Source of the DNA: Tannockella kyphosi
GTDB lineage: Bacteria; Bacillota_I; Bacilli_A; Erysipelotrichales; Coprobacillaceae
Assembly: GCF_021054785.1 (NCBI RefSeq)
Contig: NZ_CP088239.1
Location: 1,500,001 to 1,532,000, forward strand
Length of the DNA: 32,000 nucleotides
Direction of reading: 5' to 3'
Under the pieces are notes generated by a model. That model was given only the letters and a program-made list of their open reading frames with translations. It did not search any database and had not been told where the DNA came from. The position numbers were made by a program, and so were the translations under genes. Numbering within the stretch: the stretch's first letter is position 1; each line of letters begins with the position of its first letter. Of the stretch, positions 3,040 to 31,940 are shown one piece after another.

Positions 3040-3232
3040 CCTTAAAATAAAAAACGTCCTTCTAAAAAAAGGACGTAATATACGCGGTACCACCTTTATT
3101 CATGATAAATTCTATCATGCACTTCATTATCTTAACGCGATTAACGGCGGCCTCTACTTTGTTCAAAGCGCTACTCCAGAGTGATTCATTATAAATAACA
3201 TGTTAGTTTCCACCAAACACTAACTCTCTAAA
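3040..3232 (-). promoter_or_regulatory. T-box leader (Ile specifier AUC) with intrinsic terminator
   Basis: Read on the minus strand: an AGAGAG stem I base (~3224-3230), a specifier-loop-like GAAUCAC with AUC at 3183-3185, and an AGUA-type box. The T-box core GGUGGUACCGCG lies at 3083-3094. The terminator ACGUCCUU/AAGGACGU plus U-run lies at 3047-3077, immediately upstream of ileS. Confidence 0.85.
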
Positions 3233-3270
3233 AATGTTCTTTTATAAACAGTCTCTATCGTTGTATTTCT

Positions 3271-13583: not shown

Positions 13584-13592
13584 ATTATAGCA
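13584..13592 (-). promoter_or_regulatory. Candidate extended -10 (TGCTATAAT) for murG
   Basis: The minus-strand TGCTATAAT lies 21 nt upstream of the murG ATG. The -35 is weak and the leader would be only ~15 nt. Confidence 0.3.
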
Positions 13593-13673
13593 TATTCACA
13601 TTTAATTTAATATAGAATAATAATATTCATTTTTTTGCTTATATTCGAAGTTATTTCGTAAATTGTTAGACAT

Positions 13674-13705
13674 TATTTTGTTTTTCATCCCATTTATGCT
13701 ATAAT
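13674..13705 (+). promoter_or_regulatory. Candidate sigma-A promoter of the preQ1-regulated operon
   Basis: TTGTTT, then a ~16-nt spacer, then an extended -10 TGCTATAAT (13697-13705). It ends 15 nt before the riboswitch stem. Confidence 0.5.
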
Positions 13706-13720
13706 CGTCAAGTATTAAAA

Positions 13721-13760
13721 AGACAGTTCGTAACCATCCTGTCTATAAATAAAACTAGGA
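13721..13760 (+). promoter_or_regulatory. preQ1-I riboswitch aptamer
   Basis: AGACAGUUCGUAACCAUCCUGUCUAUAAAUAAAACUAGGA aligns with the B. subtilis queC aptamer AGAGGUUCUAGCUACACCCUCUAUAAAAAACUAAGG. It has a 5-bp P1 (GACAG/CUGUC), a 12-nt loop starting UUC, and an A-rich tail ending CUAGG. Downstream, CUCC(UUUU)AGGAGG could occlude the SD. Confidence 0.8.
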
Positions 13761-13789
13761 CTACTTAGTAGCTCCTTTTAGGAGGAAAA

Positions 13790-14533
13790 ATGAAGAAAGA
13801 ATTAGAAATTGAGATAATGGAAAGATATTCCATTATTAACGAAAAGAACAAAAGAGAAATCGTTCTTTTAAGAGGCCAAGGATGTTCTTGGCGTCGTTGT
13901 CGTTTTTGTGATTATCATTTAGATTTTTCTAGAGATAAAGAAGAAAATATTACTTTAAATCAAAAAGAGTTATCTAAAATAACAGGTATTCATCAAAAAC
14001 TAGAAGTTATTAATTCTGGAAGTTTTACAGAACTACCAGAAGAAACAATGGATCTTATTGAAACAATATGTATTGAAAAAAAGATCAAAGAAGTACATTT
14101 TGAAGCACACTATAACCAAAGAAAATTTATTCCTGCATTACGCCAACGATTTTCTAAAAACAACATTTCCGTTATTATTAAAATAGGAGTTGAAACATTT
14201 GACTACTTATTTAGAGAATCTTATTTAGTAAAAGGTATTCAAACAGATAATCCTAGTGAAATTGCAACTTATTTTGATGAATGTTGTTTATTACAAGGAA
14301 TACCTGGACAAACAAAAGATTCAATGATTCAAGATATTGAAATAGGTTTAACTTATTTTAATCGTGTTTGTATCAATATTATGCAAGAAAATGGAATGGC
14401 TATCAAACCAGATCCAAGCGTTATTGAACTTTTTGTAAAAGAAATATACCCATTATATAAAGAAAATCAAAGAGTGGATATTTTATTAGAAAATACTGCT
14501 TTTGGTGTTGGAGGAGTAACAACAAATGTCTAA
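13790..14533 (+). CDS. Small radical-SAM-type protein (possible queuine-lyase-like salvage enzyme)
   Basis: Cysteine cluster GCSWRRCRFCDY near the N-terminus, read as Cx4Cx2C rather than the canonical Cx3Cx2C. It is the first gene behind a preQ1 riboswitch and overlaps the following transporter gene by 8 nt. Confidence 0.65.
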   Translation: MKKELEIEIMERYSIINEKNKREIVLLRGQGCSWRRCRFCDYHLDFSRDKEENITLNQKELSKITGIHQKLEVINSGSFTELPEETMDLIETICIEKKIKEVHFEAHYNQRKFIPALRQRFSKNNISVIIKIGVETFDYLFRESYLVKGIQTDNPSEIATYFDECCLLQGIPGQTKDSMIQDIEIGLTYFNRVCINIMQENGMAIKPDPSVIELFVKEIYPLYKENQRVDILLENTAFGVGGVTTNV

Positions 14534-15218
14534 TGAATTATTATTAATACTATGTTTAGTATGTACTTATATGAGTGTTTTATTATTTTATCGTTTTTTT
14601 GGAAAAACAGGTTTATATGTTTGGACTGCAATTGTTACCATTAGTGCAAATATCGAAGTATTAATGTTAATCGATGCTTTTGGTGTTGAACAAACATTAG
14701 GAAATATTTTGTTTGCATCTAGTTTTTTAGTAACTGATATTTTATCGGAAAATGAGGATAAAGAGAGTGCAAATCTAGCTGTTAAGATTGGTATTATGTC
14801 GAATATTACTTTTGTGCTTATTTCACAATCATGGTTATTATTCACACCAAACGCAAATGATTGGGTGAGTCCTGCTGTTCATACTATTTTTTCAAATACA
14901 CCTAGATTAATGATTGTTGGGGTTCTTGTTTATGCACTTGCTCAATGGTTTGATGTTTGGGCATATCACCTTATTTGGGAAAAGACAAAAGCAAAGTTTG
15001 GAGATAGTAAAAGAGGTTTATGGCTTAGAAATAATGGTTCTACCTTAGTTTCACAGTTATTAAATACTGTTTTATTTACTTTTGGAGCATTTATTGGTAT
15101 GTATGATATTCCTACTTTAATTAATATTACTATTGCATCTTATGTTATTTATGTTATTACAAGTTTATGTGATACACCTGTAGTTTATTTATCAAGAAAA
15201 ATTAAACCTAAAAACTAA
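14526..15218 (+). CDS. yhhQ: YhhQ/VUT-family queuosine-precursor transporter
   Basis: Six-TM protein with family-typical segments F..SFLVTDILSE...A, LWLRNNGSTLVSQLLNTVLF and a C-terminal DTP..YL. It is under preQ1 riboswitch control. Confidence 0.8.
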   Translation: MSNELLLILCLVCTYMSVLLFYRFFGKTGLYVWTAIVTISANIEVLMLIDAFGVEQTLGNILFASSFLVTDILSENEDKESANLAVKIGIMSNITFVLISQSWLLFTPNANDWVSPAVHTIFSNTPRLMIVGVLVYALAQWFDVWAYHLIWEKTKAKFGDSKRGLWLRNNGSTLVSQLLNTVLFTFGAFIGMYDIPTLINITIASYVIYVITSLCDTPVVYLSRKIKPKN

Positions 15219-15240
15219 AGGGAATATCCCTTTTTTTATT
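15217..15240 (+). terminator. Intrinsic terminator after yhhQ
   Basis: AAAGGGA-ATA-TCCCTTT followed by a T-run, starting at the stop codon. Confidence 0.65.
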
Positions 15241-15304
15241 TACCATTTTAGTTGCAAAACAAGAATAATCTATGTACAATACTTAAAAAGAAAAGGAGTA
15301 TTCT

Positions 15305-15850
15305 ATGATTGATGAAATTATTTTATTTAATGAAAATTTTGTAAAGAACGAAAAATATAAAGACTTTATTACCAATAAATATCCTAATAAGAAATTAGCG
15401 ATTCTCTCATGCATGGATACCCGTTTAACTAAATTACTTCCTGCTGCTTTAGGTTTAGAAAATGGCGATGCTAAAATCATTAAGAATGCGGGTGGTGTTA
15501 TTTCACATCCCTATGGTAGTGCTGTTAGAAGCATACTAATTGCAATCTATCAACTAGGCGTGACTGAAATTATGGTAATTGGTCATAGTGATTGTGGTGT
15601 TCAACATCTAGATAGTCAAAAACTAATTGATTCGATGATAAAACATGGGATTGAAAGCAGTGTTATTGAAAATGTGAAAGCTAGTGGGATTGATTTAGAA
15701 GGTTGGCTGGGAGGCTTCTCTAATGGGGATGCGGCAATTACAAATACTGTCCAATGTTTACAGTCACATCCATTAGTTCCAAAAGATATCCTTATTAAAG
15801 GCTTTATCATGGATTCATTAACAGGATTGCTTCAAGAAGTAAACAAATAG
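15305..15850 (+). CDS. Beta-class carbonic anhydrase
   Basis: Zinc ligand motifs CMDTRL and GHSDCG in a ~180-aa protein. Confidence 0.85.
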   Translation: MIDEIILFNENFVKNEKYKDFITNKYPNKKLAILSCMDTRLTKLLPAALGLENGDAKIIKNAGGVISHPYGSAVRSILIAIYQLGVTEIMVIGHSDCGVQHLDSQKLIDSMIKHGIESSVIENVKASGIDLEGWLGGFSNGDAAITNTVQCLQSHPLVPKDILIKGFIMDSLTGLLQEVNK

Positions 15851-15888
15851 GATTCTTTTATGATGCAATTAAAACATTCCTTTTCATT

Positions 15889-15979
15889 TTATTTCATAAC
15901 ATTTAACATACTACCTACAACAACAAGTGTAATTATGAAAGAGGATCTCCTATAACTAAATAGCGGGTGCAATGGTAGC
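15889..15979 (-). pseudogene. Diverged orphan copy of the ftsW 3' end (old att-site remnant)
   Basis: About 80% identical by eye to 23159-23254. The minus strand reads LPLHPLFSYRRSSFIITLVVVGSMLNVMK*, compared with [28 protein letters not shown] for the real FtsW. No upstream ORF is present. Confidence 0.6.
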
Positions 15980-16032
15980 TTAGGTCTCTTTTTTAGCTTC
16001 TTTATAAAATATCATTTTCATTTATTTCAGTT

Positions 16033-16307
16033 ACCAAGAATACAGAACAGCTTCATAAGATAGTGTTGATTGTTTTTTAGTAAATGGGTATACTATTGGT
16101 GAGGTTAAGTGGATTAACTTAAAAAAAGAGTTCTTGCTGGATCTCTTTTTTCGTTCTTTCGAACTAATCGTTAGAAGCAAGACGAATCAAGAACCAGTAA
16201 TCTTTTATGATAACTATAATCAAGACTCCTAGTCCAAACTTGACATCCAACATATATGTTTTAGTTATAATATTACTCTTCATTCTAACTAGAATTATTT
16301 AACCTAC
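16033..16307. repeat. Degenerate type I TA-like unit, copy 1
   Basis: Plus-strand TTGATT-17-TATACT (16066-16094) and an imperfect terminator (~16125-16151). On the minus strand the peptide ORF is reduced to a stub after SD-CTTGATT and the TGGTATAAT toxin promoter is absent. Confidence 0.55.
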
Positions 16308-16590
16308 AAAAAATTCAGAACAGCTTCACAAGATAGCGTTGACTGTTTTTTAGTAAATGGGTATACTATTAATGAGGTAAGGCGAATTACCAATAAAAAA
16401 GAGATCGGGCAGATCTCTTTTTTCGTTCTTTCGAACTAATCGTTGGAAGCAAGGCGAATCAAGAACTAGTTATCTTTTTAGAATAATTGCAATCAATACT
16501 CCTAATTCAAACTTGACCTCCAACATAACATGTTTTTAGTCATAATATTGCCCTCCATCGACTGTCAATATTATACCATATTTGATTGAT
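16308..16590. repeat. Type I TA-like unit, copy 2 (sRNA side intact, peptide ORF deleted)
   Basis: TTGACT-17-TATACT (16339-16367) and terminator AGAGATC-GGGCA-GATCTCT (16394-16424). The minus-strand TGGTATAAT (16570-16578) and AGGAG are retained, but ATGGAACTACTTATTGTGGTTCTTGT is missing between the two ATTGATT repeats. Confidence 0.6.
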
Positions 16591-16631
16591 CGAATGTTTA
16601 ATTTCAAGCCTAATTCTACAACTATTATTAC

Positions 16632-16880
16632 CTAAAAACAGTTCCCTTGATATTGGTCTAGTAGTAGTACTAGGCCTCTTTTCTTTAGTCTATCGTTCGT
16701 TACAGTATTACACATGATATATGCCATGGCAACTCGTGCGTATGCTTTTCTACTATTTGCCCATTCCCATGCTTTATATTTGTTTGCTCCTAGTTTTATT
16801 AGTGCTCTATATTTTGTACCTATTCTTTTCCATTGTTTCCATATGCACATCCTAAGTCTAAACCGTGTACGTGTGGCCGC
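16632..16880 (-). pseudogene. Group II intron reverse transcriptase/maturase, C-terminal fragment only
   Basis: RLRMCIWKQWKRIGTKYRALIKLGANKYKAWEWANSRKAYARVA...NDRLKKRGLV matches the conserved C-terminal (X/maturase-distal) region of bacterial intron-encoded proteins. No RT domain lies upstream and no domain V/VI RNA lies downstream. Confidence 0.65.
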
Positions 16881-17188
16881 AATAAACTGGACAGTTATTA
16901 TAAATTAATAATAACTGAAAAGGAGGCTCTAGAAGCAGACGAGAAAGACATATTTTTACAACTGCATTTAAAAAGCAAATGGTTGATTTGCATCACGGTG
17001 GTAAACACACTCGGGCTGTCGTTATAGGAGAGTATCATTATTTGATTATATTTAGATGATCGTACTTGAAACATTTATACACTTTTCAATAATCTCTGGA
17101 GACTTAAAACATCCCCTCATATATATACCTACAAAAGGTGAGCAAGTTGACCGAATTATTTTTAACTTTAGTAGCATAATTGAAATAT

Positions 17189-17204
17189 TATCATAATTAT
17201 GATA
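17189..17204. promoter_or_regulatory. 16-bp perfect palindrome overlapping the phd promoter (candidate operator)
   Basis: TATCATAATTATGATA lies between TTGAAA and the -10-like TAATAA, 22 nt upstream of the antitoxin ATG. Confidence 0.45.
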
Positions 17205-17226
17205 ATAACAAAAGGAGATGATAGCT

Positions 17227-17514
17227 ATGCCAAAGATTAGACCGGTTTCAGATTTAAGAAACAATTTTACTGATATTTCAAGAATTATTCATGAGGAATC
17301 AGAGCCTATCTTTTTAACTAAAAATGGTTATGGTGATATGGTTGTAATGAGCATTGAAGCTTACGAAAAACTCCAATTTGAAAATGAAATTTATTTCAAA
17401 TTGAAAGAAGCAAAATTACAAGCAAAGAGTACTGATATAAGATATTCTCATGAAGAAGTTTTCGGAGATTTAAGAAAAAAACTCCAAGATAAGGTAGACA
17501 TAGATGACATATAA
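17227..17514 (+). CDS. Phd/YefM-family type II antitoxin (copy A)
   Basis: MPKIRPVSDLRNNFTDISRIIHEESEPIFLTKNGYGDMVVMSIEAYEKL is the Phd/YefM fold signature. Start set at MPKIRP to match copy B. It differs from copy B at only two residues. Confidence 0.8.
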   Translation: MPKIRPVSDLRNNFTDISRIIHEESEPIFLTKNGYGDMVVMSIEAYEKLQFENEIYFKLKEAKLQAKSTDIRYSHEEVFGDLRKKLQDKVDIDDI

Positions 17515-17672
17515 AATACAATATCTACCAATTGCAAGAGAAGATATTGAACAGTCAGTGATTGTTTGTATGCACCTAAAGCAGCATTAGATTTACTTGA
17601 CAACATAGATAAAACTATAGACAACTTAAAAACCTTTCCAATTGCATATCCAGTCAATGAAACCTCTTGATA
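17504..17672 (+). pseudogene. ParE/RelE-family toxin remnant (frameshifted and 3'-truncated)
   Basis: The ATG overlaps the antitoxin stop. It starts MTYKIQYLPIAREDIEQ and shares the frameshift seen in copy B. Relative to copy B, the segment from TTTGAATATCG through CAAATACTCCAA (C-terminal two thirds) is deleted. Confidence 0.65.
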
Positions 17673-17805
17673 AGGCATTGATAAATTGAATAAAGTTACT
17701 TTACAAGCAAATATTTTCATTCTACACCAAAACTTATGGGCAATTTAAAATTCTGAAACTATAGATGAATCAAGCTCTTTGAAGAACTAAATAAGCAGAC
17801 CTAAG

Positions 17806-17840
17806 AAACACCGTAAATTCCAAGTTTACGGTGTTTTATT
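17806..17840 (+). terminator. Hairpin/terminator at the end of the Phd/ParE block
   Basis: AACACCGTAAA-TTCCAAG-TTTACGGTGTT followed by TTATT. In the cargo-less copy (22621-22643) only the 5' arm, the loop and TTTAC survive. Confidence 0.5.
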
Positions 17841-17952
17841 AGGCACTATAAATTAATTTTTTAAACCCCACTTACGTTTAAAGCACTAATGTCCTATTAA
17901 CTTTACGACAATTAGTGCTTTATTATTTTATGATTACTATTATACTTATCTT

Positions 17953-19107
17953 TTAAAATTTATCCCAAATCAAATACAACGCTAATAATGGCCCATTTTC
18001 ATATCCTTGTTCTGGATACTCTTTTTGCAGTTTGTAAAATTGCTTCAATAACAACTCCGAAAACTGCACTTCCCTCTTAATTCCTAATACTAGACAAACC
18101 ATAGATCGTGCTATTGGATATTTGATTTCCTCTATATTTTTTGTTAAATCCTCCACATATTTAGCATCTGAAATAGCTAATGCTAATGTGGCTATTTCAA
18201 CAAATTCATCTTGTCTATTATTTTTAATTTGCTTTAAAACAAGAGGTATAATTTGTTCTTCCATGGATGAAACTTTCTCTAATATATTTTCTCTATTTAT
18301 TACTATTGTAGATTTACGCATACATCTAATCAATTCTTTGGGGCAAGTAATCTGCATAATCGATGCTTTATCTTTCTCAATTTCCAATATTCTTTCTTCA
18401 TCTAAGAAGGGGAAGGTCGCTTCGTCAAGAAGATGCTTAAATTCATGGCTTCTCATCATAATTAAATTCAAATATAGGATCATAGCTGATGAGCTTTCTT
18501 CCAATTTATTTTGTTCAAAGAACTTTGCTGGTATACAAACCTTTTCGTAACTTTTCTTTTCAGCGAAAATCTTTTCCTGAAATCTATGAATAATATCTTC
18601 TGCAACTTCTCCTGGCAATCTTCCGTTTATGTTTATCTTATTTCTGATATTTTTAAATGCTGGTTTGTAATAATTAATATCTTCTTGAATGTCTTGCAAA
18701 TAATGCTCCTTGTGCTTATTTTTATAATCATCATCAATATAGCAATGATCATTTTCATCTGAAAATACTAATCTATCAAATATATTTGTTACACTATCTT
18801 GTAATTCTATTGCTATAGTATTAGCCCATAATAGATATCTATCAAATACACTCGCATACACAATAGGGCTAATTGCAATTACTTTATTCTGTTCTTTTGA
18901 TTTCATTAATAAATCTAAAACAACACCCTTTTTCTGATCACGTTCTAATTTATCTGGAATATTATTTACAAATTCTTCCAACGTTGTTCCATAATAAACT
19001 GTTGTTTCGTAATCCAAATCATAAAATTTATATCCTATTTTTTCAGCTAGTACTTCACCCGTTGTTGTCTTTCCTACATTTGTAATGCCAAGCAGTAAAA
19101 TTATCAT
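17953..19107 (-). CDS. P-loop protein: N-terminal shikimate/adenylate-kinase-like module plus ~200-aa helical C-terminal domain, function unknown
   Basis: Walker A LLLGITNVGKTTTGEVLAEKIGYKFYDLD at residues 4-32 in a compact kinase-like ~180-aa module. The C-terminal half looks helical-repeat-like. A GAGGTG RBS lies 6 nt upstream, and the start is 36 nt after the SEC-C gene. Confidence 0.6.
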   Translation of the reverse strand: MIILLLGITNVGKTTTGEVLAEKIGYKFYDLDYETTVYYGTTLEEFVNNIPDKLERDQKKGVVLDLLMKSKEQNKVIAISPIVYASVFDRYLLWANTIAIELQDSVTNIFDRLVFSDENDHCYIDDDYKNKHKEHYLQDIQEDINYYKPAFKNIRNKININGRLPGEVAEDIIHRFQEKIFAEKKSYEKVCIPAKFFEQNKLEESSSAMILYLNLIMMRSHEFKHLLDEATFPFLDEERILEIEKDKASIMQITCPKELIRCMRKSTIVINRENILEKVSSMEEQIIPLVLKQIKNNRQDEFVEIATLALAISDAKYVEDLTKNIEEIKYPIARSMVCLVLGIKREVQFSELLLKQFYKLQKEYPEQGYENGPLLALYLIWDKF

Positions 19108-19143
19108 ACATTCACCTCAGTCTACGATAAGGTAAACCTTATC

Positions 19144-20550
19144 TTATTTTTTACAACACTTTTTATACTTTTTTCCACTCCCACATGGACAAGGTTCATT
19201 AGGAGATATTTTTGTTACTTTTCTTTCAACTCCCTTGTTTGTCCCAGTAGAATACGACATCATAGGAATAATACTTTCAGACCTTTCTGAATCAATATTC
19301 TTCTTTAACATTTCAGTCGGTGTGTGTCCGCAATTACGCCATATTCTAGTCGAATTCATTATCTCTATTATATAACTCACGACCTCATTTGCTTGATTTA
19401 TATCTTTCATTAGTATGTCAAATTTTTCCAATTGTGCAAAAACATACTGAATACATCCCTCGGAACTACCACCATATTCCATTAATTCAGCATCAAAAAT
19501 GAACTCATGAATTCCATCTAGGATGTAATCTATATAATCTATGGCTTGCATTTCTCCTTGGTTCGCCGCTTTCTTAAAGTTCTTCATATATTTGCGCTCT
19601 AAATACCTCACAAATCTTTTTTCTGCAATGTTTATTTCTCTATAACTTGCATCAGCATACCTTAAAAATTCTATTCTAGACGGGATATATCGCTCATTCT
19701 CTGCCGATTCCCAATACAATTCACGGAAATACGAAGTTGCTCTTTTATAAAAGAATTCGTCTAAATGTTCTTCTGTAATCTCTGTATTTTTGTTACGAAG
19801 GAACCTAGCCATTTTTTCTATTTCCTTTTCAAGTTGCTCTCTAAAGCATTCATGTAGAATCAGTCCATCCATAGTCATACACACCCCTGGTATCATATTT
19901 CCAATTATGTTACTAAGGACTGCTGTGCACATATGCTTTGGGTTAAATACGATTGAATGAGCGTATTTCCCACCCAAACGTATATATCCATCTTCTTCCC
20001 ATATTTTCTTTTCATATTGCCTTATCAACGACTCTAATTCTTTAACATGAATTACACCATATAAATGAACAGCTGCCAATGCATATTGTCGAATCATATC
20101 TACGTATGCTTTACGTTTCATATATACCTTATCAATCGCTAAGATATCATAATCTTCTTGACATCTGTAAGATTCTAATAATCGCCTTATTTCATCATCA
20201 TCGAAACCTATAGTTATACAAAAACATTCAAAAATAGCATCCTCGCCTAACGCCTCTGCAATTAAGTTTATTTTTTCCTGTTTTTTTAATTTGTATGGAT
20301 TGTCGGCCATTTCACAAATTCTTCTACAGATTTCTAAAGCTGCTTCATCTAAAAAATCATATTGAGACTCAACAAACATCATAGATGTTTGTTCCGCTAC
20401 TATCTCTAGAAATTCATTTTTAGTCCCTTGTACCAATTCTCTAATATCACAATTCTTCTCAATAACCTGTACTACAATAGTCAGTAACTTATCAATATCT
20501 TTTGCATAATATTTCATTAAGCAATTCTGTATTTTATCTTTTCTACTCAT
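19144..20550 (-). CDS. SEC-C-motif (SecA-type zinc finger) protein, function unknown
   Basis: 468-aa protein whose composition looks predominantly helical, ending EPCPCGSGKKYKKCCKK. I recognise no catalytic motif. Confidence 0.65.
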   Translation of the reverse strand: MSRKDKIQNCLMKYYAKDIDKLLTIVVQVIEKNCDIRELVQGTKNEFLEIVAEQTSMMFVESQYDFLDEAALEICRRICEMADNPYKLKKQEKINLIAEALGEDAIFECFCITIGFDDDEIRRLLESYRCQEDYDILAIDKVYMKRKAYVDMIRQYALAAVHLYGVIHVKELESLIRQYEKKIWEEDGYIRLGGKYAHSIVFNPKHMCTAVLSNIIGNMIPGVCMTMDGLILHECFREQLEKEIEKMARFLRNKNTEITEEHLDEFFYKRATSYFRELYWESAENERYIPSRIEFLRYADASYREINIAEKRFVRYLERKYMKNFKKAANQGEMQAIDYIDYILDGIHEFIFDAELMEYGGSSEGCIQYVFAQLEKFDILMKDINQANEVVSYIIEIMNSTRIWRNCGHTPTEMLKKNIDSERSESIIPMMSYSTGTNKGVERKVTKISPNEPCPCGSGKKYKKCCKK

Positions 20551-20829
20551 TTTTTACACCTATTCTTTCTTTTTATTTACGCATCACCCCTTGGTGATAA
20601 ATTCATATTCGTTGTGAATATGTGCTTCCTTTTTCATATCTTCATACTAACAAAAACATCAATTTAACAAATCAGCTAACACGCTAGCTTTTAAAACTTC
20701 TACCTTCCCAAAATACGAGAATGATATTACATATTCTACTTTATCAAAGCTATTCTCATTAATCAAGTATATAAGATCACTTCACCAAATCGTATTGACT
20801 ATTTATTAATAAATGGATATACTATTGGT

Positions 20830-20879
20830 GAGGTTAAGTAGATTAACTTAAAAAAAAGAGATCGGCCGATCTCTTTTTT
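20830..20879 (+). ncRNA. Candidate type I antitoxin sRNA (copy 3)
   Basis: Promoter TTGACT-17 nt-TATACT (20795-20823). The 20-nt perfect palindrome AAGAGATCGGCCGATCTCTT (20856-20875) plus a T-run ends the transcript after ~50 nt. Nt 20830-20845 can pair with the toxin mRNA at 20902-20917, including two G-U pairs. Confidence 0.5.
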
Positions 20880-20921
20880 CGTTCTTACGAACTAATCGTT
20901 GGAGGCTAAGTAGATCAAGAG

Positions 20922-20978
20922 CTAGTTATCTTTTATAATAACTATAATCAATACAAGAACCACAATAAGTAGTTCCAT
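20922..20978 (-). CDS. Candidate type I toxin, 18-aa hydrophobic peptide MELLIVVLVLIIVIIKDN (copy 3)
   Basis: Extended -10 TGGTATAAT (21058-21066) and AGGAG (20987-20991) 8 nt before the ATG. It converges on the sRNA terminator. The identical peptide is encoded at 22885-22941. It is below the ORF-track size cutoff. Confidence 0.5.
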   Translation of the reverse strand: MELLIVVLVLIIVIIKDN

Positions 20979-21195
20979 AATCAATACTCCTAATTCAAAC
21001 TTGACCTCCAACATAACATGTTTTTAGTCATAATATTGCCCTCCACCGACTGTCAATATTATACCATATTCGTACGATGAAAAGAGTCTTTTCAATGATA
21101 ATTCGTTCACTATTTTTTATAAATTTATCAACTAAAAATAGTTTCCTTTATATCTAAGAAATCTTATTGATTTCTTCTTTTTTTATACAAAAATA

Positions 21196-21291
21196 TTAAT
21201 TTTGTTTCATAACATTTAACATAATACCTACTGCAATAAGTGTAATCGTTAAAGAAGATCCACCATAACTAAAAAATGGTAAAGTGACGCC
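21196..21291 (-). pseudogene. Exact orphan duplicate of the last 96 nt of ftsW
   Basis: Identical by eye to 23159-23254 (codons for [31 protein letters not shown]). Identity stops abruptly after GTGACGCC at 21291 and 23254. Confidence 0.85.
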
Positions 21292-21300
21292 TGTAACGTG

Positions 21301-21330
21301 TAGTTCACGCTCCCTTTAGAACGTGAACTA
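21301..21330. repeat. 9-bp inverted repeat next to the ftsW' junction
   Basis: TAGTTCACG-12 nt-CGTGAACTA, beginning 10 nt from the homology breakpoint. Confidence 0.6.
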
Positions 21331-21585
21331 GCTATCACACTTAAATCCACATTAAAGAATACTTCTATGTTTCTTTCTTCATCTATTTCTACCTTTGAAT
21401 TAAATCCAATATTAGTTTACGATTAACCTCTTTTAAACTCACAAACTGTTCAATCGTTCTTTTCACTTCATCACAGCTAACAATATTTTTTTGTCATCTT
21501 TTAGTATTTCTAATCTTGTGTTTAGTTTGTTTACTTTGGGGGTGCGGACGTTTTCGTTGATATTTATATCTTGGATAGGCTACAA
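21330..21585 (-). pseudogene. C-terminal remnant of a large serine recombinase (DUF4368-like tail), frameshifted
   Basis: Minus-strand frames read ...NTRLEILKDDKKILL..., then KRTIEQFVSLKEVNRKLILDLIQR, then VEIDEERNIEVFFNV. This resembles the coiled-coil and terminal domain of Firmicute large serine recombinases. It is interrupted by stops or frame changes, and the N-terminal ~400 aa are absent. Confidence 0.4.
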
Positions 21586-21816
21586 AAAACTGGACAGTTA
21601 TTATAAGAGCGACTATTGTTAATGATAACTAAAAAGGAGGCTATAGAAATAGAAGAGAAAGATGTATTTTTACAACTGCATTTAAAAAGCAGCTTGAAAC
21701 ATCTATTCACTTTTCAATAATCTCTGGAGACTTAAAAACTCCCCCTCATATATATATCTGCAAAAGGTGAGCAAGTTGACCGAATTATTTTTAACTTTAG
21801 TAGCATAATTGAAATA

Positions 21817-21834
21817 ATATCATAATTATGATAT
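21817..21834. promoter_or_regulatory. 18-bp perfect palindrome overlapping the phd promoter (candidate operator)
   Basis: ATATCATAATTATGATAT lies between TTGAAA and TATAAT, upstream of the antitoxin at 21867. Confidence 0.45.
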
Positions 21835-21866
21835 TATAATGATAATAACGGAAGGAGCTGATAGCT

Positions 21867-22154
21867 ATGCCAAAGATTAGACCGGTTTCGGATTTAAGAA
21901 ACAACTTTACTGATATTTCAAGAATTATTCATGAGGAATCAGAGCCTATCTTTTTAACTAAAAATGGTTATGGGGATATGGTTGTAATGAGCATTGAGGC
22001 TTACGAAAAACTCCAATTTGAGAATGAAGTCTATTTCAAATTGAAAGAAGCAGAATTACAAGCAAAGAGTACTGATATAAGATATTCTCATGAAGAAGTT
22101 TTTGGAGATTTAAGAAAAAAACTCCAAGATAAGGTAGACATAGATGACATATAA
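21867..22154 (+). CDS. Phd/YefM-family type II antitoxin (copy B)
   Basis: Same signature as copy A, with a GGAAGGAG RBS. Confidence 0.85.
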   Translation: MPKIRPVSDLRNNFTDISRIIHEESEPIFLTKNGYGDMVVMSIEAYEKLQFENEVYFKLKEAELQAKSTDIRYSHEEVFGDLRKKLQDKVDIDDI

Positions 22155-22439
22155 AATACAATATCTACCAATTGCAAGAGAAGATATTGAACAGTCAGTG
22201 ATTGTTTGTATGCACCTAAAGCAGCATTAGATTTACTTGACAACATAGATAAAACTATAGACAACTTAAAAACCTTTCCACTTGCATATCCAGTCAATGA
22301 AACAACAAAACCTCTTGATTTTGAATATCGAATGATACCTGTTAAAAACTATTTAATTTTCTATGTAGTTACAGGAGATATTGTTGAAATTCATAGAGTG
22401 GTATACTCGAAAATGGATTTAACAAGACTACTAAAATAA
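22144..22439 (+). pseudogene. ParE/RelE-family toxin with an N-terminal frameshift
   Basis: ATG 22144 overlaps the antitoxin stop and gives MTYKIQYLPIAREDIEQSV, then stops at 22228-22230. The rest (YAPKAALDLLDNIDKTIDNLKTFPLAYP...YRMIPVKNYLIFYVVTGDIVEIHRVVYSKMD) is in another frame, open from 22191. The C-terminal part is a typical ParE/RelE fold signature. Confidence 0.65.
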
Positions 22440-22788
22440 CCAAATACTCCAAAGGCATTGATAAATTGAACAAAGTTACTTTACAAGCAATTCAAGATGT
22501 TTAAAACGATATTGGTACAAGCAAAGATTTTCATTCTACACCAGAACTTATGGGTAATTTAAAATTTTGAAACTGTAGATAAATCAAACTCTATGAAGAA
22601 CTAAATAAGCAGACCCAAGAAACACCGTAAATTCCAAATTTACTCAACTAACACGCTAGCTTTTGGAACTTCTATGAGAATGATATTACATGTTCACCTT
22701 TACCAAAGATTTTCTCATTAATCAAGTATATAGGATTACTTCACCAGATTGTATTGACTGTTTTTTAGTAAATGGGTATACTATTGGT

Positions 22789-22841
22789 GAGGTAAGATGG
22801 AATTACCAATAAAAAAAGAGATCCTGCTAGATCTCTTTTTT
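22789..22841 (+). ncRNA. Candidate type I antitoxin sRNA (copy 4)
   Basis: TTGACT-17-TATACT (22754-22782) and terminator AGAGATC-CTGCTA-GATCTCT plus T-run (22813-22841). Nt 22791-22805 match the target at 22866-22880 at 13 of 15 positions, and both differences give G-U pairs. Confidence 0.5.
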
Positions 22842-22884
22842 CGTTCTTACGAACTAGTCGTTGAAGGCAAGATGGAATCAAGAG

Positions 22885-22941
22885 CTAGTTATCTTTTATA
22901 ATAACTATAATCAATACAAGAACCACAATAAGTAGTTCCAT
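22885..22941 (-). CDS. Candidate type I toxin, 18-aa peptide MELLIVVLVLIIVIIKDN (copy 4)
   Basis: TGGTATAAT (23021-23029) and an AGGAGG RBS 7 nt before the ATG. The ORF nucleotide sequence is identical to copy 3. Confidence 0.5.
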   Translation of the reverse strand: MELLIVVLVLIIVIIKDN

Positions 22942-23118
22942 GATCGATCCTCCTAATTCAAACTTGACCTCCAACATAACATGTTTTTAGTCATAATATT
23001 GCCCTCCACCGACTGTCAATATTATACCATATTCGTACGATGAAAAGAGTCTTTTCAATGATAATTCGTTCACTATTTTTTATAAATTTATCAACTAAAA
23101 ATAGTTTCCTTTATATAC

Positions 23119-23147
23119 GAGAAATCTTATTGATTTCTTCTTTTTTT
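23119..23147 (+). terminator. Plus-strand intrinsic terminator between the toxin promoter region and the ftsW stop
   Basis: AGAAATC-TTATT-GATTTCT followed by CTTTTTTT. The same element occurs at ~21157-21186. The T-run is on the plus strand only. Confidence 0.5.
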
Positions 23148-23158
23148 ATACAAAAATA

Positions 23159-24232
23159 TTAATTTTGTTTCATAACATTTAACATAATACCTACTGCAAT
23201 AAGTGTAATCGTTAAAGAAGATCCACCATAACTAAAAAATGGTAAAGTGACGCCAGTTATCGGAAAAATTCCAACAACCACACCCAAGTTAATCAATGCT
23301 TGTATTGACAATAATGAACCAATCCCAACTAACAAAAAACATCCAAATAAATCATGACATTCCTTGGCACTAGAAATAATAAGATAAATTAAAAAAACAT
23401 ATAATCCAATTAAAAAAATAGCTCCTATCAAACCAAATTCTTCGCAATAAATAGCAAATATAAAATCAGTTTGAGGCTCTGGTAAATAAAAGTGTTTTTG
23501 AATACTATTATTATAACCAACCCCCACTATTCCTCCAGGTCCAATCGCATACAAAGATTGTATCATTTGAAATCCACTTCCCAAAGGATCGCCAAAAGGA
23601 TCTAAATAAGCAGTTATTCTTTCCAAACGATAAGGAGCCGCTACTATCATCCCAACTAACCCAGCAACACCCCCTAAACCAAGAAAAACAAAATAACGAA
23701 AAGGTAATGGTGTAACTAACAACATAACAACTATACTACTAGCCATCACGATAGCACTACCAAAATCAGGTTGCAACATAATCAAACCAAACCCTATCAA
23801 TATCACAACAAATAAAGCAATTGCATTGCTTATTTTTTTTAATTCCAAATAATACAAATGAATATAACGAGCACTATAAATAATAATACCAACTTTAAAT
23901 AATTCACTAGGTTGAAAAGAAACAATACCAAAATCAAACCAACTTTGTGATCCTCCTCTTGCACTACCAACTCCCGGAATAATTACTAAAATTAATAATA
24001 TAAATGTCACCAACAATAATTTTCTACTATGTACTAAATAAAAATGATAATCTATCTTAGAAACTATAAACATACATACAATCCCAATAAACGCAAAAAA
24101 TAATTGCCTCTTTATATAATAAAAAGAATCTCCAAACTTATAAAAAGCCCATACATTACTAGCGCTATAAACCATACACAAACCAATAAACACAATCACT
24201 AACACTACTCCAATGACTAATCTATATCGCAT
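23159..24232 (-). CDS. ftsW: SEDS-family peptidoglycan glycosyltransferase FtsW (SpoVE position in sporeformer dcw clusters)
   Basis: Ten-TM FtsW/RodA/SpoVE signature ([27 protein letters not shown]) and a position between murD and murG. Confidence 0.9.
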   Translation of the reverse strand: MRYRLVIGVVLVIVFIGLCMVYSASNVWAFYKFGDSFYYIKRQLFFAFIGIVCMFIVSKIDYHFYLVHSRKLLLVTFILLILVIIPGVGSARGGSQSWFDFGIVSFQPSELFKVGIIIYSARYIHLYYLELKKISNAIALFVVILIGFGLIMLQPDFGSAIVMASSIVVMLLVTPLPFRYFVFLGLGGVAGLVGMIVAAPYRLERITAYLDPFGDPLGSGFQMIQSLYAIGPGGIVGVGYNNSIQKHFYLPEPQTDFIFAIYCEEFGLIGAIFLIGLYVFLIYLIISSAKECHDLFGCFLLVGIGSLLSIQALINLGVVVGIFPITGVTLPFFSYGGSSLTITLIAVGIMLNVMKQN

Positions 24233-31820: not shown

Positions 31821-31940
31821 AGAAAAAGAAAATCCCATCGTTACCGACAGGATTATACGTTCATTCATTCCTTAGCACCTTATTAAAAGCAGGTTGCTGT
31901 ACGATCAATGGTCTTGTCCCTCACGTACTCTAGATAGTTT
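31821..31940 (-). promoter_or_regulatory. SAM-I (S-box) riboswitch-like leader with terminator
   Basis: The minus strand reads CUAUCUAGAG-UACGU-GAGGGA-CAAGACC-AUUGA-UCGUACA-GCAACC-U..-AGGUGCUAAGG. This carries the ordered S-box core motifs AGAG, GAGGGA, GA, GCAACC and GGUGCUAA, with P2 (UACG/CGUA) and P3 (ACCU/AGGU) pairing. It is followed by the hairpin AAUCCUGUCG-GUAA-CGAUGGGAUU plus a U-run (31821-31854). I could not draw P1 or P4 cleanly. Confidence 0.5.

Follow-up and report, generated by a model that had tools for sequence, protein, structure and literature searches.

Copy-specific complementarity between small RNAs and toxin 3' untranslated regions in four paralogous, putatively toxin-antitoxin-like modules of Tannockella kyphosi

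How can near-identical copies of a short regulatory module stand close together in one bacterial chromosome while each small RNA keeps a partner of its own, and by what kind of change did the matching segments come to differ? This question is raised by a stretch of 32,000 nucleotides of Tannockella kyphosi (Erysipelotrichales, Coprobacillaceae; RefSeq assembly GCF_021054785.1, contig NZ_CP088239.1, positions 1,500,001 to 1,532,000 of the forward strand), which is called the window below and whose own numbering, beginning with 1, is used throughout. The window holds four homologous modules of about 270-310 nt each, and an nhmmer search of its whole length returned those four and no fifth:

16040-16300: module copy 1
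16313-16580: module copy 2
20769-21075: module copy 3
22728-23040: module copy 4

In these modules a plus-strand gene for a small RNA (sRNA) faces a minus-strand gene for a short peptide, and the two convergent transcripts overlap solely at a common bidirectional terminator of about 30 nt. Copies 3 and 4 look intact, and copies 1 and 2 look like truncated toxins with retained sRNAs. The words toxin, for the peptide, and antitoxin, for the sRNA, denote presumed roles assigned from sequence features. It is probable that the modules are four paralogues of an undescribed type I toxin-antitoxin-like family, inserted between the cell-division genes ftsW and murG.

A preliminary description of the locus had noticed that a segment near the 5' end of each sRNA is repeated on the plus strand just beyond the stop codon of the peptide, which makes the sRNA complementary to the 3' untranslated region (3'UTR) of the toxin mRNA, and that the variable core of this segment differs between copies and agrees within a copy. 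The segments are indeed found where they had been placed, namely GAGGTTAAGTAGATTA at 20830-20845 and GAGGCTAAGTAGATCA at 20902-20917 in copy 3, 22791-22805 and 22866-22880 in copy 4, and 16376-16389 and 16448-16461 in copy 2, and in copies 3 and 4 the target starts 4 nt after the stop codon. The targets in their full extent, with the number of base pairs formed with the sRNA of the same copy and with their state in the predicted mRNA fold, are these:

16174-16190, minus strand: copy 1 target-like segment, of the specificity class termed B below, lying inside a read-through open reading frame (ORF) and fitting the copy 2 sRNA
16446-16461, minus strand: copy 2 target in the toxin 3'UTR, 16 bp with 3 G-U pairs
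20902-20918, minus strand: copy 3 target, 17 bp with 2 G-U pairs, paired with its own toxin Shine-Dalgarno (SD) region in the folded mRNA
22864-22880, minus strand: copy 4 target, 17 bp with 3 G-U pairs, its core CAUC unpaired in the folded mRNA and its flanks paired with SD regions

The seed of each sRNA was set against each toxin RNA in a matrix of RNAduplex energies. The cognate pairs of copies 2, 3 and 4 reach -24.3, -24.4 and -24.5 kcal/mol respectively, each with 16-17 contiguous base pairs, and most other combinations are weaker, with two cross pairs excepted: the copy 1 sRNA meets the copy 3 target at -24.1 kcal/mol, and the copy 2 sRNA meets the copy 1 target at -24.4 kcal/mol. The copy 4 sRNA attains -19.8 kcal/mol on the copy 1 target at a shifted site, and the remaining non-matching pairs lie between -7.7 and -14.1 kcal/mol. 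Copy 1 had been singled out as non-cognate in cis, and so it is, the sRNA segment TTAAGTGGATTA and the target GCAAGACGAATCA forming a duplex of -12.3 kcal/mol. Of 2000 shuffled seeds for each copy, not one paired as strongly as the real seed (z -5.5 to -6.9). When both strands of the 32 kb were scanned, the named targets were the best sites besides the antisense strands of the sRNA genes themselves, over a background of -15.5 to -19.8 kcal/mol. By matrix, shuffles and window scan the complementarity is thus copy-specific, lies in the toxin 3'UTR and goes far beyond chance.

Where in the sRNA does the variable core lie? Each sRNA gene is preceded by a near-consensus sigma-70 promoter on the plus strand, and the sRNA of about 50 nt ends in an A-run, a GC hairpin and a T-run, which read as an intrinsic terminator on both strands; promoters and terminators are kept in all four copies. 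The sRNA features are the following:

16066-16094, plus strand: copy 1 sRNA promoter, TTGATT-17-TATACT
16101-16151, plus strand: copy 1 predicted sRNA, 51 nt, 5' hairpin AGGUUAA/UUAACUU with loop GUGGA, weakened terminator hairpin (loop UUGCUG)
16339-16367, plus strand: copy 2 sRNA promoter, TTGACT-17-TATACT
16374-16423, plus strand: copy 2 predicted sRNA, 50 nt, 5' hairpin GGUAA/UUACC with loop GGCGAA, terminator loop GGGCA
20795-20823, plus strand: copy 3 sRNA promoter, TTGACT-17-TATACT
20830-20879, plus strand: copy 3 predicted sRNA, 50 nt, 5' hairpin with the stem of copy 1 and loop GUAGA, terminator loop GGCC
22754-22782, plus strand: copy 4 sRNA promoter, TTGACT-17-TATACT
22789-22841, plus strand: copy 4 predicted sRNA, 53 nt, 5' hairpin with the stem of copy 2 and loop GAUGGAA, terminator loop CUGCUA

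The recognition segment starts 7 nt past the -10 element, which is the predicted 5' end of the sRNA, and in all four sRNAs the first 20 nt or so fold as a hairpin (-4.1 to -5.0 kcal/mol) of which the variable core is the loop. Two sRNA positions that are always T, and C in the target, are stem positions of this hairpin. The terminator loops vary by copy as well, and because they are encoded on the same DNA the terminator loops of sRNA and mRNA are automatically complementary. The location of the core in a hairpin loop, the variation of the terminator loop and the pairing of the target with SD sequences, described below, are all three absent from the preliminary description.

The two cross pairs show that four copies do not mean four specificities. 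Class A comprises copy 3 and the copy 1 sRNA, class B copy 2 and the copy 1 remnant, and class C copy 4. Copy 1 is a chimera: its promoter (53 of 57 positions) and target (14 of 15) agree with copy 2, and its sRNA hairpin agrees with copy 3 at 24 of 25 positions as against 15 of 25 with copy 2, and it fits the copy 3 target through one extra G-U pair. An intact sRNA in a decayed copy, fitting the toxin RNA of another, fits the expected look of an orphan antitoxin. The earlier suggestion that the paralogous antitoxins have been insulated from cross-talk therefore stands as far as the duplexes are copy-specific, but it has to be restricted to three classes, since full pairing is predicted for the copy 1 sRNA on the copy 3 target and for the copy 2 sRNA on the copy 1 remnant.

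Copies 3 and 4 are identical at 141 of 144 positions from just past the target through the ORF and the 5' region (98-100%), whereas their recognition islands are only about 55-65% identical (target 9/16, sRNA hairpin 18/28). The divergence is confined to these two short islands and the terminator loop, with invariant sequence between them; the terminator stem is conserved, and the T-run and a GNRA hairpin with its flank are identical at 19-21 of 22 positions. Such a pattern needs either strong diversifying selection or the exchange of short segments, and either way the islands have stayed matched. Because the toxin part is near-identical and the islands are divergent, short-segment exchange by recombination is at least as likely as compensatory mutation in place, and it can be said that the copy-specific complementarity arose at least partly by segment exchange.

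How strong, then, is the covariation itself? MAFFT and RNAalifold misaligned the indels of the sRNA hairpin, and a manual alignment of the four copies was used instead. In it the three classes differ at five columns, two with substitutions (three states each) and three with indels, and each state has its counterpart in the partner, so that the two-sided changes number about seven; if the indel columns are set aside, two pairs with two-sided changes are counted and the remaining signal consists of the three mirrored indels. In this alignment 94% of cells are paired, as against 19-57% when the partner strand is slid by one to three columns. A formal covariation test is underpowered because there are four sequences only. 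The preliminary description had taken the compensatory change as strong evidence of a real RNA-RNA interaction; the changes are indeed matched and G-U-consistent, but they come down to three classes and about seven mirrored changes, for which segment exchange is an equally likely source or a more likely one.

It had also been stated that the recurrent T-versus-C differences translate into G-U pairs, and this extends to all differences inside the duplex, when a plus-strand sRNA is paired with a minus-strand mRNA. In six of six independent in-duplex differences the sRNA has T or G where the target has C or A: the two common T/C positions, a G/A in the targets of copies 1 and 2, a G/A in the copy 4 target, a G/A in the copy 1 sRNA against copy 3, and a G/A in the copy 1 target against the copy 2 sRNA. 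All six give U-G or G-U pairs, therefore only a plus-strand transcript of the first segment with a minus-strand transcript of the second fits. The chance of six such differences is (1/6)^6 over all substitution types and (1/2)^6 for transitions only, to be read with the caveat that the duplex ends were set by where complementarity stops, a C/A mismatch ending the duplex in copies 2 and 4.

The same repeats could be explained on the level of DNA, with no RNA-RNA function at all, by block inheritance, gene conversion between the repeats, target-site duplication or protein-binding sites. With a spacing of only about 72 nt, the islands would be carried along as a unit in any recombination; that such events did occur is shown by the mosaic pattern, and the classes number only three. 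However, all copies have homologous flanks, so that independent insertions are ruled out and target-site duplication was rejected; the two fixed T/C differences inside the 17-nt tract of every copy show that the repeats have not been homogenised, and gene conversion between them was rejected as sole cause on that ground. Moreover, only one polarity makes the differences G-U compatible, invariant sequence stands between the islands, and one of the repeats coincides with a predicted transcript 5' end and falls in a hairpin loop. An explanation by DNA processes without RNA pairing is thus considered very improbable.

What would the sRNA act on? The minus strand of copies 2-4 has an extended -10 element (TGgTATAAT), a GGAGGG placed 7 nt before the ATG of a 13-codon upstream ORF (uORF), a second GGAGG, and an AGGAG placed 8 nt before an ATG. 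The features of the toxin side, with minimum free energies (MFE) of the predicted folds, are as follows:

20848-21051, minus strand: copy 3 predicted toxin RNA, about 204 nt, after the extended -10 TGgTATAAT at 21058-21066, MFE -65.6 kcal/mol, z -6.9
22809-23014, minus strand: copy 4 predicted toxin RNA, about 206 nt, MFE -74.3 kcal/mol, z -7.7
20922-21014, minus strand: copy 3 toxin ORF, 30-aa reading MLEVKFELGVLIMELLIVVLVLIIVIIKDN
20922-20978, minus strand: copy 3 18-aa reading (MELLIV..., MELLIVVLVLIIVIIKDN), its ATG with an AGGAG SD 8 nt upstream
22885-22977, minus strand: copy 4 toxin ORF, 30 aa, with the 18-aa reading at 22885-22941
20990-21031, minus strand (also 22953-22994): uORF of 13 codons, MTKNMLCWRSSLN, with GGAGGG 7 nt upstream
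16466-16578, minus strand: copy 2 toxin-side RNA, with the extended -10 at 16570-16578, the uORF SD and ATG at 16541-16556, and a short ORF MLEVKFELGVLIAIILKR without a 33-nt block
16164-16253, minus strand: copy 1 decayed toxin ORF MLDVKFGLGVLIIVIIKDYWFLIRLASND, without the toxin -10, the uORF SD and ATG, the 33-nt block and the stop codon
20881-20892, minus strand (same at 16153-16164, 16425-16436 and 22843-22854): GTTC-GNRA-GAAC hairpin of the toxin 3'UTR, between target and terminator

The peptide is very hydrophobic, and neither the 18-aa form nor the 30-aa form contains a proline or a PXXXG motif. The internal ATG of the 18-aa form has a better SD than the 30-aa start. The peptides of copies 3 and 4 had been described as identical, which is correct for the 18-aa reading, but the 30-aa ORFs differ at two residues. 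Copies 1 and 2 lack an in-frame block of 33 nt (20946-20978 in copy 3, 22909-22941 in copy 4), i.e. 11 codons with the internal ATG and most of the hydrophobic helix; since the block is bounded by an 11-nt direct repeat, GTATTGATTAT, its deletion from these two copies is suggested. In copy 1 the stop codon is lost as well and the ORF reads through the target segment. As to the uORF, its SD is the strongest of the locus, and it is present in copy 2 and lost in copy 1. The uORF stop codon overlaps the AGGAG SD of the 18-aa ORF, an arrangement which resembles the translational coupling of mok and hok.

The toxin RNAs of copies 3 and 4 are strongly structured according to the predicted folds, no shuffle being as stable. 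In these folds the 3'UTR target is already engaged: CUCUUGAU is joined to the toxin SD, AUUAGGAG; in addition GCCUCCAAC pairs with GUUGGAGGU in copy 3, and UUGCCUUC with GAGGGCAA, the uORF SD, in copy 4. The unpaired probability is near 0 for the target flanks and 0.67-0.97 for the core CAUC of copy 4. Helices that would hide the SD and the extreme 5' end are thus predicted, but with the 3'UTR as partner, and the 5' regions, being near-identical, give no covariation for them. On these models the 5' domain of the sRNA would be a sequence mimic of the toxin translation initiation region (TIR).

The predicted fold admits an alternative in which the 3'UTR element serves as an anti-SD clamp in cis and the sRNA, as a mimic of the ribosome-binding site, competes for it and opens the mRNA; the sRNA would then be a copy-specific activator, or a gate which couples opening to destruction. 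The MFE structure and the ensemble agree in placing the target opposite AUUAGGAG and opposite GUUGGAGGU or GAGGGCAA, the toxin SD is unpaired in the predicted seed-bound complex, and the sRNA 5' domain can be aligned with the TIR (GAGGU-AAG..GAAUUA versus GGAGGUCAAGUUUGAAUUA). A constitutive near-consensus promoter for an sRNA that activates a membrane-toxic peptide would however be self-defeating, the orphan sRNA of copy 1 has been kept and fits the copy 3 toxin, all characterised 3'-end-binding RNAs of Firmicute type I systems are antitoxins, and the clamp itself is a product of predicted folding. Such a switch is consequently regarded as unlikely. A low probability is likewise given to the more general proposal that the element has two competing partners, the ribosome-binding region in cis and the copy-specific mimic sRNA in trans, the sRNA being the key to a 5'-3' clamp. 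If this were true, sRNA binding would decide whether opening of the mRNA leads to destruction or to translation, and the hypervariable loop would make each clamp specific for its key.

The seed is accompanied by another possible contact. In cofolding of the full-length RNAs the cis pairs reach -19 to -25 kcal/mol through a terminator-terminator duplex, the other pairs -2 to -14.5 kcal/mol, so that in the models the common terminator would be a second and stronger copy-specific complementarity. This leads to the possibility of a stable complex of the kind known from the par locus of pAD1, formed by kissing of the terminator loops and then by the seed, in which an mRNA pool would stay untranslated until the sRNA decays. 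The geometry is the same as in par, with convergent promoters, a common bidirectional terminator and a direct repeat (PMC7472228), and the terminator duplex is the thermodynamic optimum (-19 to -20 kcal/mol). On the other hand, the peptide has neither the PXXXG motif of Fst nor a Pfam match, and a direct block of the ribosome is impossible because the repeat lies outside the TIR. There is in our estimate a small chance that the modules work in this manner.

The reading which is considered the probable one, in which the sRNA is an antitoxin that triggers decay, runs from loop contacts through a 3'UTR duplex and the loss of protective 3' hairpins to decay of the mRNA. A minus-strand mRNA of about 200 nt would encode the very hydrophobic peptide of 18 or 30 aa, and a convergent plus-strand sRNA of about 50 nt would first meet it through the complementary terminator loops. 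A seed duplex of 16-17 bp would follow, between the sRNA 5' hairpin and the direct-repeat copy in the toxin 3'UTR. Most likely this 3'-end duplex would mark the mRNA for cleavage by a double-strand-specific RNase, and the cleavage would strip the 3' hairpins and thus expose the mRNA to decay, by analogy with the Bacillus and Staphylococcus antitoxin RNAs that bind 3' ends. An intramolecular clamp between 3'UTR and SD may keep the full-length toxin mRNA silent, like hok and aapA1, and since the 3'UTR element also pairs with the toxin SD regions, the sRNA would capture chiefly those mRNAs in which the clamp has opened. In the course of evolution the recognition islands would have been diversified or exchanged into the three classes.

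Several points weigh against this antitoxin reading. A mimic of a ribosome-binding site that pairs with the anti-SD strand is built, in its geometry, like an activator and not like a repressor, and a duplex of 17 bp is short for RNase III. On full-length mRNAs in their folded state the energy gain of the seed is only -7.0, -1.6 and 0.0 kcal/mol, because the target is predicted to be paired already with its own ribosome-binding region; against the 3' part of the mRNA alone the gain is -16 to -19.5 kcal/mol. The start codon of the peptide is ambiguous (18 or 30 aa). With four sequences, 19-22 of 500 shuffles match the covariation of the substitutions alone, which is not decisive, and as the database searches described below brought up no relative of either peptide or module, the covariation is confined to the copies in this window. 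The transcription of either RNA, the toxicity of the peptide, the sign of the regulation and the involvement of an RNase are all deduced from the DNA, and the sign of regulation is the main uncertainty.

If the antitoxin reading is true, the locus would be a compact natural case of paralogous RNA regulators kept orthogonal by few loop nucleotides, the sRNA having about 50 nt and the variable loop 5-7 nt. With its recognition site placed in the anti-SD strand of a 5'-3' clamp, the locus would at the same time be a direct test case for coupled antisense binding, mRNA refolding and decay in bacteria without RNase E.

With regard to the genomic setting, the FtsW of the window has homologues in Thomasclavelia, Coprobacillus, Longibaculum and Faecalibacillus at about 60-70% identity, the nearest match being 78%, which places the host among Coprobacillaceae-like Erysipelotrichales, and in more distant relatives murG follows directly after ftsW. 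Because the two genes are adjacent in these relatives, 13584-23158 is an insertion. This module-bearing insertion of 9.6 kb in the cell-division cluster seems to have grown through a series of events at the 3' end of ftsW, and a 78-nt 3' end of ftsW/spoVE is present three times, at 15883-15960, 21196-21273 and 23159-23236 (83% identity). A type II toxin-antitoxin pair, Phd/YefM-ParE, is duplicated as well (17218-17720 and 21867-22439, 92-95% identity), with ParE frameshifted or truncated in both copies; in a strain variant in a public assembly (L003) ParE is deleted and a promoter like that of the copy 4 sRNA lies 249 nt after phd. Between the two pairs of modules there is a minus-strand gene pair (17953-19107 and 19144-20550) for a 384-aa P-loop/shikimate-kinase-like protein and a 468-aa protein with a C-terminal SEC-C motif, which has weak PADLOC matches only and could be uncharacterised island cargo or a defence pair. 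A 72-aa ORF at 16632-16850 was tried as the remnant of a group II intron maturase and dropped for want of Pfam support. Two further minus-strand elements, a T-box leader upstream of a 937-aa ORF (3066-3270) and an S-adenosylmethionine (SAM) riboswitch at the far end of the window (31832-31940), are ordinary for a low-GC Firmicute.

Is the family known from elsewhere? No Rfam model matched the modules at its gathering score, and at E <= 10 the best match had E = 0.64 (GibS, 29 bits versus a cut-off of 115 bits); the models of the Fst antitoxin RNA and of Intron_gpI had no match in the module region. Pfam gave no significant match to the peptide, the one hit (E-value 0.75) being far below the cut-off, and a full HMMER scan of 1.84 billion representatives found no relative of it. 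The module ORFs of every frame, joined into one sequence of 508 aa, had no database match, the module DNA had no BLAST match among plasmids or phages, a pattern scan of GTDB returned one chance match only, metagenome scans returned two chance matches only, and scans of viral sequences yielded chance or intron matches only. The latter concern the 3'UTR motif AACGAYUAGUUCGNAAGAACG, i.e. the GUUC-GNRA-GAAC hairpin and its flank (16153-16175, 16425-16447, 20881-20903 and 22843-22865), which recurs in viral contigs (L005, L007, L009), in the P7 region of their group I introns. An identity as group I intron was rejected, since the likeness is limited to about 22 nt and the Rfam intron model has no match in the window, and the similarity is taken as a short chance match.

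The contigs of the closest relative (L014-L016) all end 74 nt past ftsW, in sequence homologous to the toxin-upstream flank of the window, and exact look-ups of neighbouring window proteins led to L001 and L003 only, public short-read assemblies of this organism, both of which end at an sRNA start. As the contigs break at module edges, the closest relative and the public assemblies probably carry modules in multiple copies. In a literature search, no description of a type I system from Erysipelotrichales came up.

Among known systems, the par locus of pAD1 (RNA I, encoding Fst, and RNA II) comes close in layout, with convergent promoters, a common bidirectional terminator that gives complementary stem-loops, and a DNA direct repeat read in opposite directions as a second, non-overlapping complementarity (PMC7472228). 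Further likenesses, predicted ones in the present locus, would be a toxin RNA of about 200 nt whose intramolecular helices mask its SD and 5' end, and an antitoxin RNA of about 40-50 nt (PMC7472228). In contrast to par, which has DRa and DRb, there is one repeat here, and it lies in the 3'UTR past the stop codon instead of covering SD and start codon; in sense the sRNA agrees with the TIR and is not its complement, the 3'UTR repeat itself is the predicted partner of the SD, and the peptide is without PXXXG, an Fst-type charged tail or a Pfam match.

In bsrG/SR4, txpA/RatA, yonT/SR6 and SprG/SprF the antitoxin RNA likewise contacts the 3' end of the toxin mRNA, in which the SD is already partly sequestered. 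SR4 promotes decay of bsrG and remodels its SD helix (PMC3834814), silencing of txpA by RatA and of yonT by SR6 depends on RNase III (PMC3531473), and SprF and SprG pair at their 3' ends, paralogous SprF RNAs neutralising their cognate SprG only (PMC6393307). The toxins of these systems are non-homologous to the present peptide, and their perfect antisense overlap extends over tens to more than 100 nt, as opposed to a terminator of about 30 nt plus a trans-type seed of 17 nt here; because the overlap is long, specificity is automatic in them. Escherichia coli Ibs/Sib, and also Zor/Orz, are similar in that they are multi-copy, have hydrophobic peptides of 18-19 aa, and set pairing by short recognition domains (TRD1 and TRD2 of Sib; PMC4147584). 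Because copy-specific recognition in multi-copy type I systems has thus been established by Sib/Ibs (PMC4147584) and SprG/SprF, the covariation found here is confirmatory and not surprising. Sib, however, is fully antisense to ibs and blocks its ribosome-binding site in a Gram-negative host, and there is neither a common terminator nor a 3'UTR target. In hok/sok, the full-length hok mRNA is locked by pairing of its 3' end with the 5' region through the fbi element. In aapA1/IsoA1 of Helicobacter pylori the 3' end also pairs with the 5' translation region and makes the full-length mRNA untranslatable (PMC5416894), and a comparable lock is predicted here. The antisense RNAs of both these systems bind the 5' region of a processed, opened mRNA, whereas the present sRNA would bind the 3' locking strand. 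The locus therefore resembles a type I system of par-like geometry but with a 3'UTR target, and both the family and this architecture appear to be undescribed.

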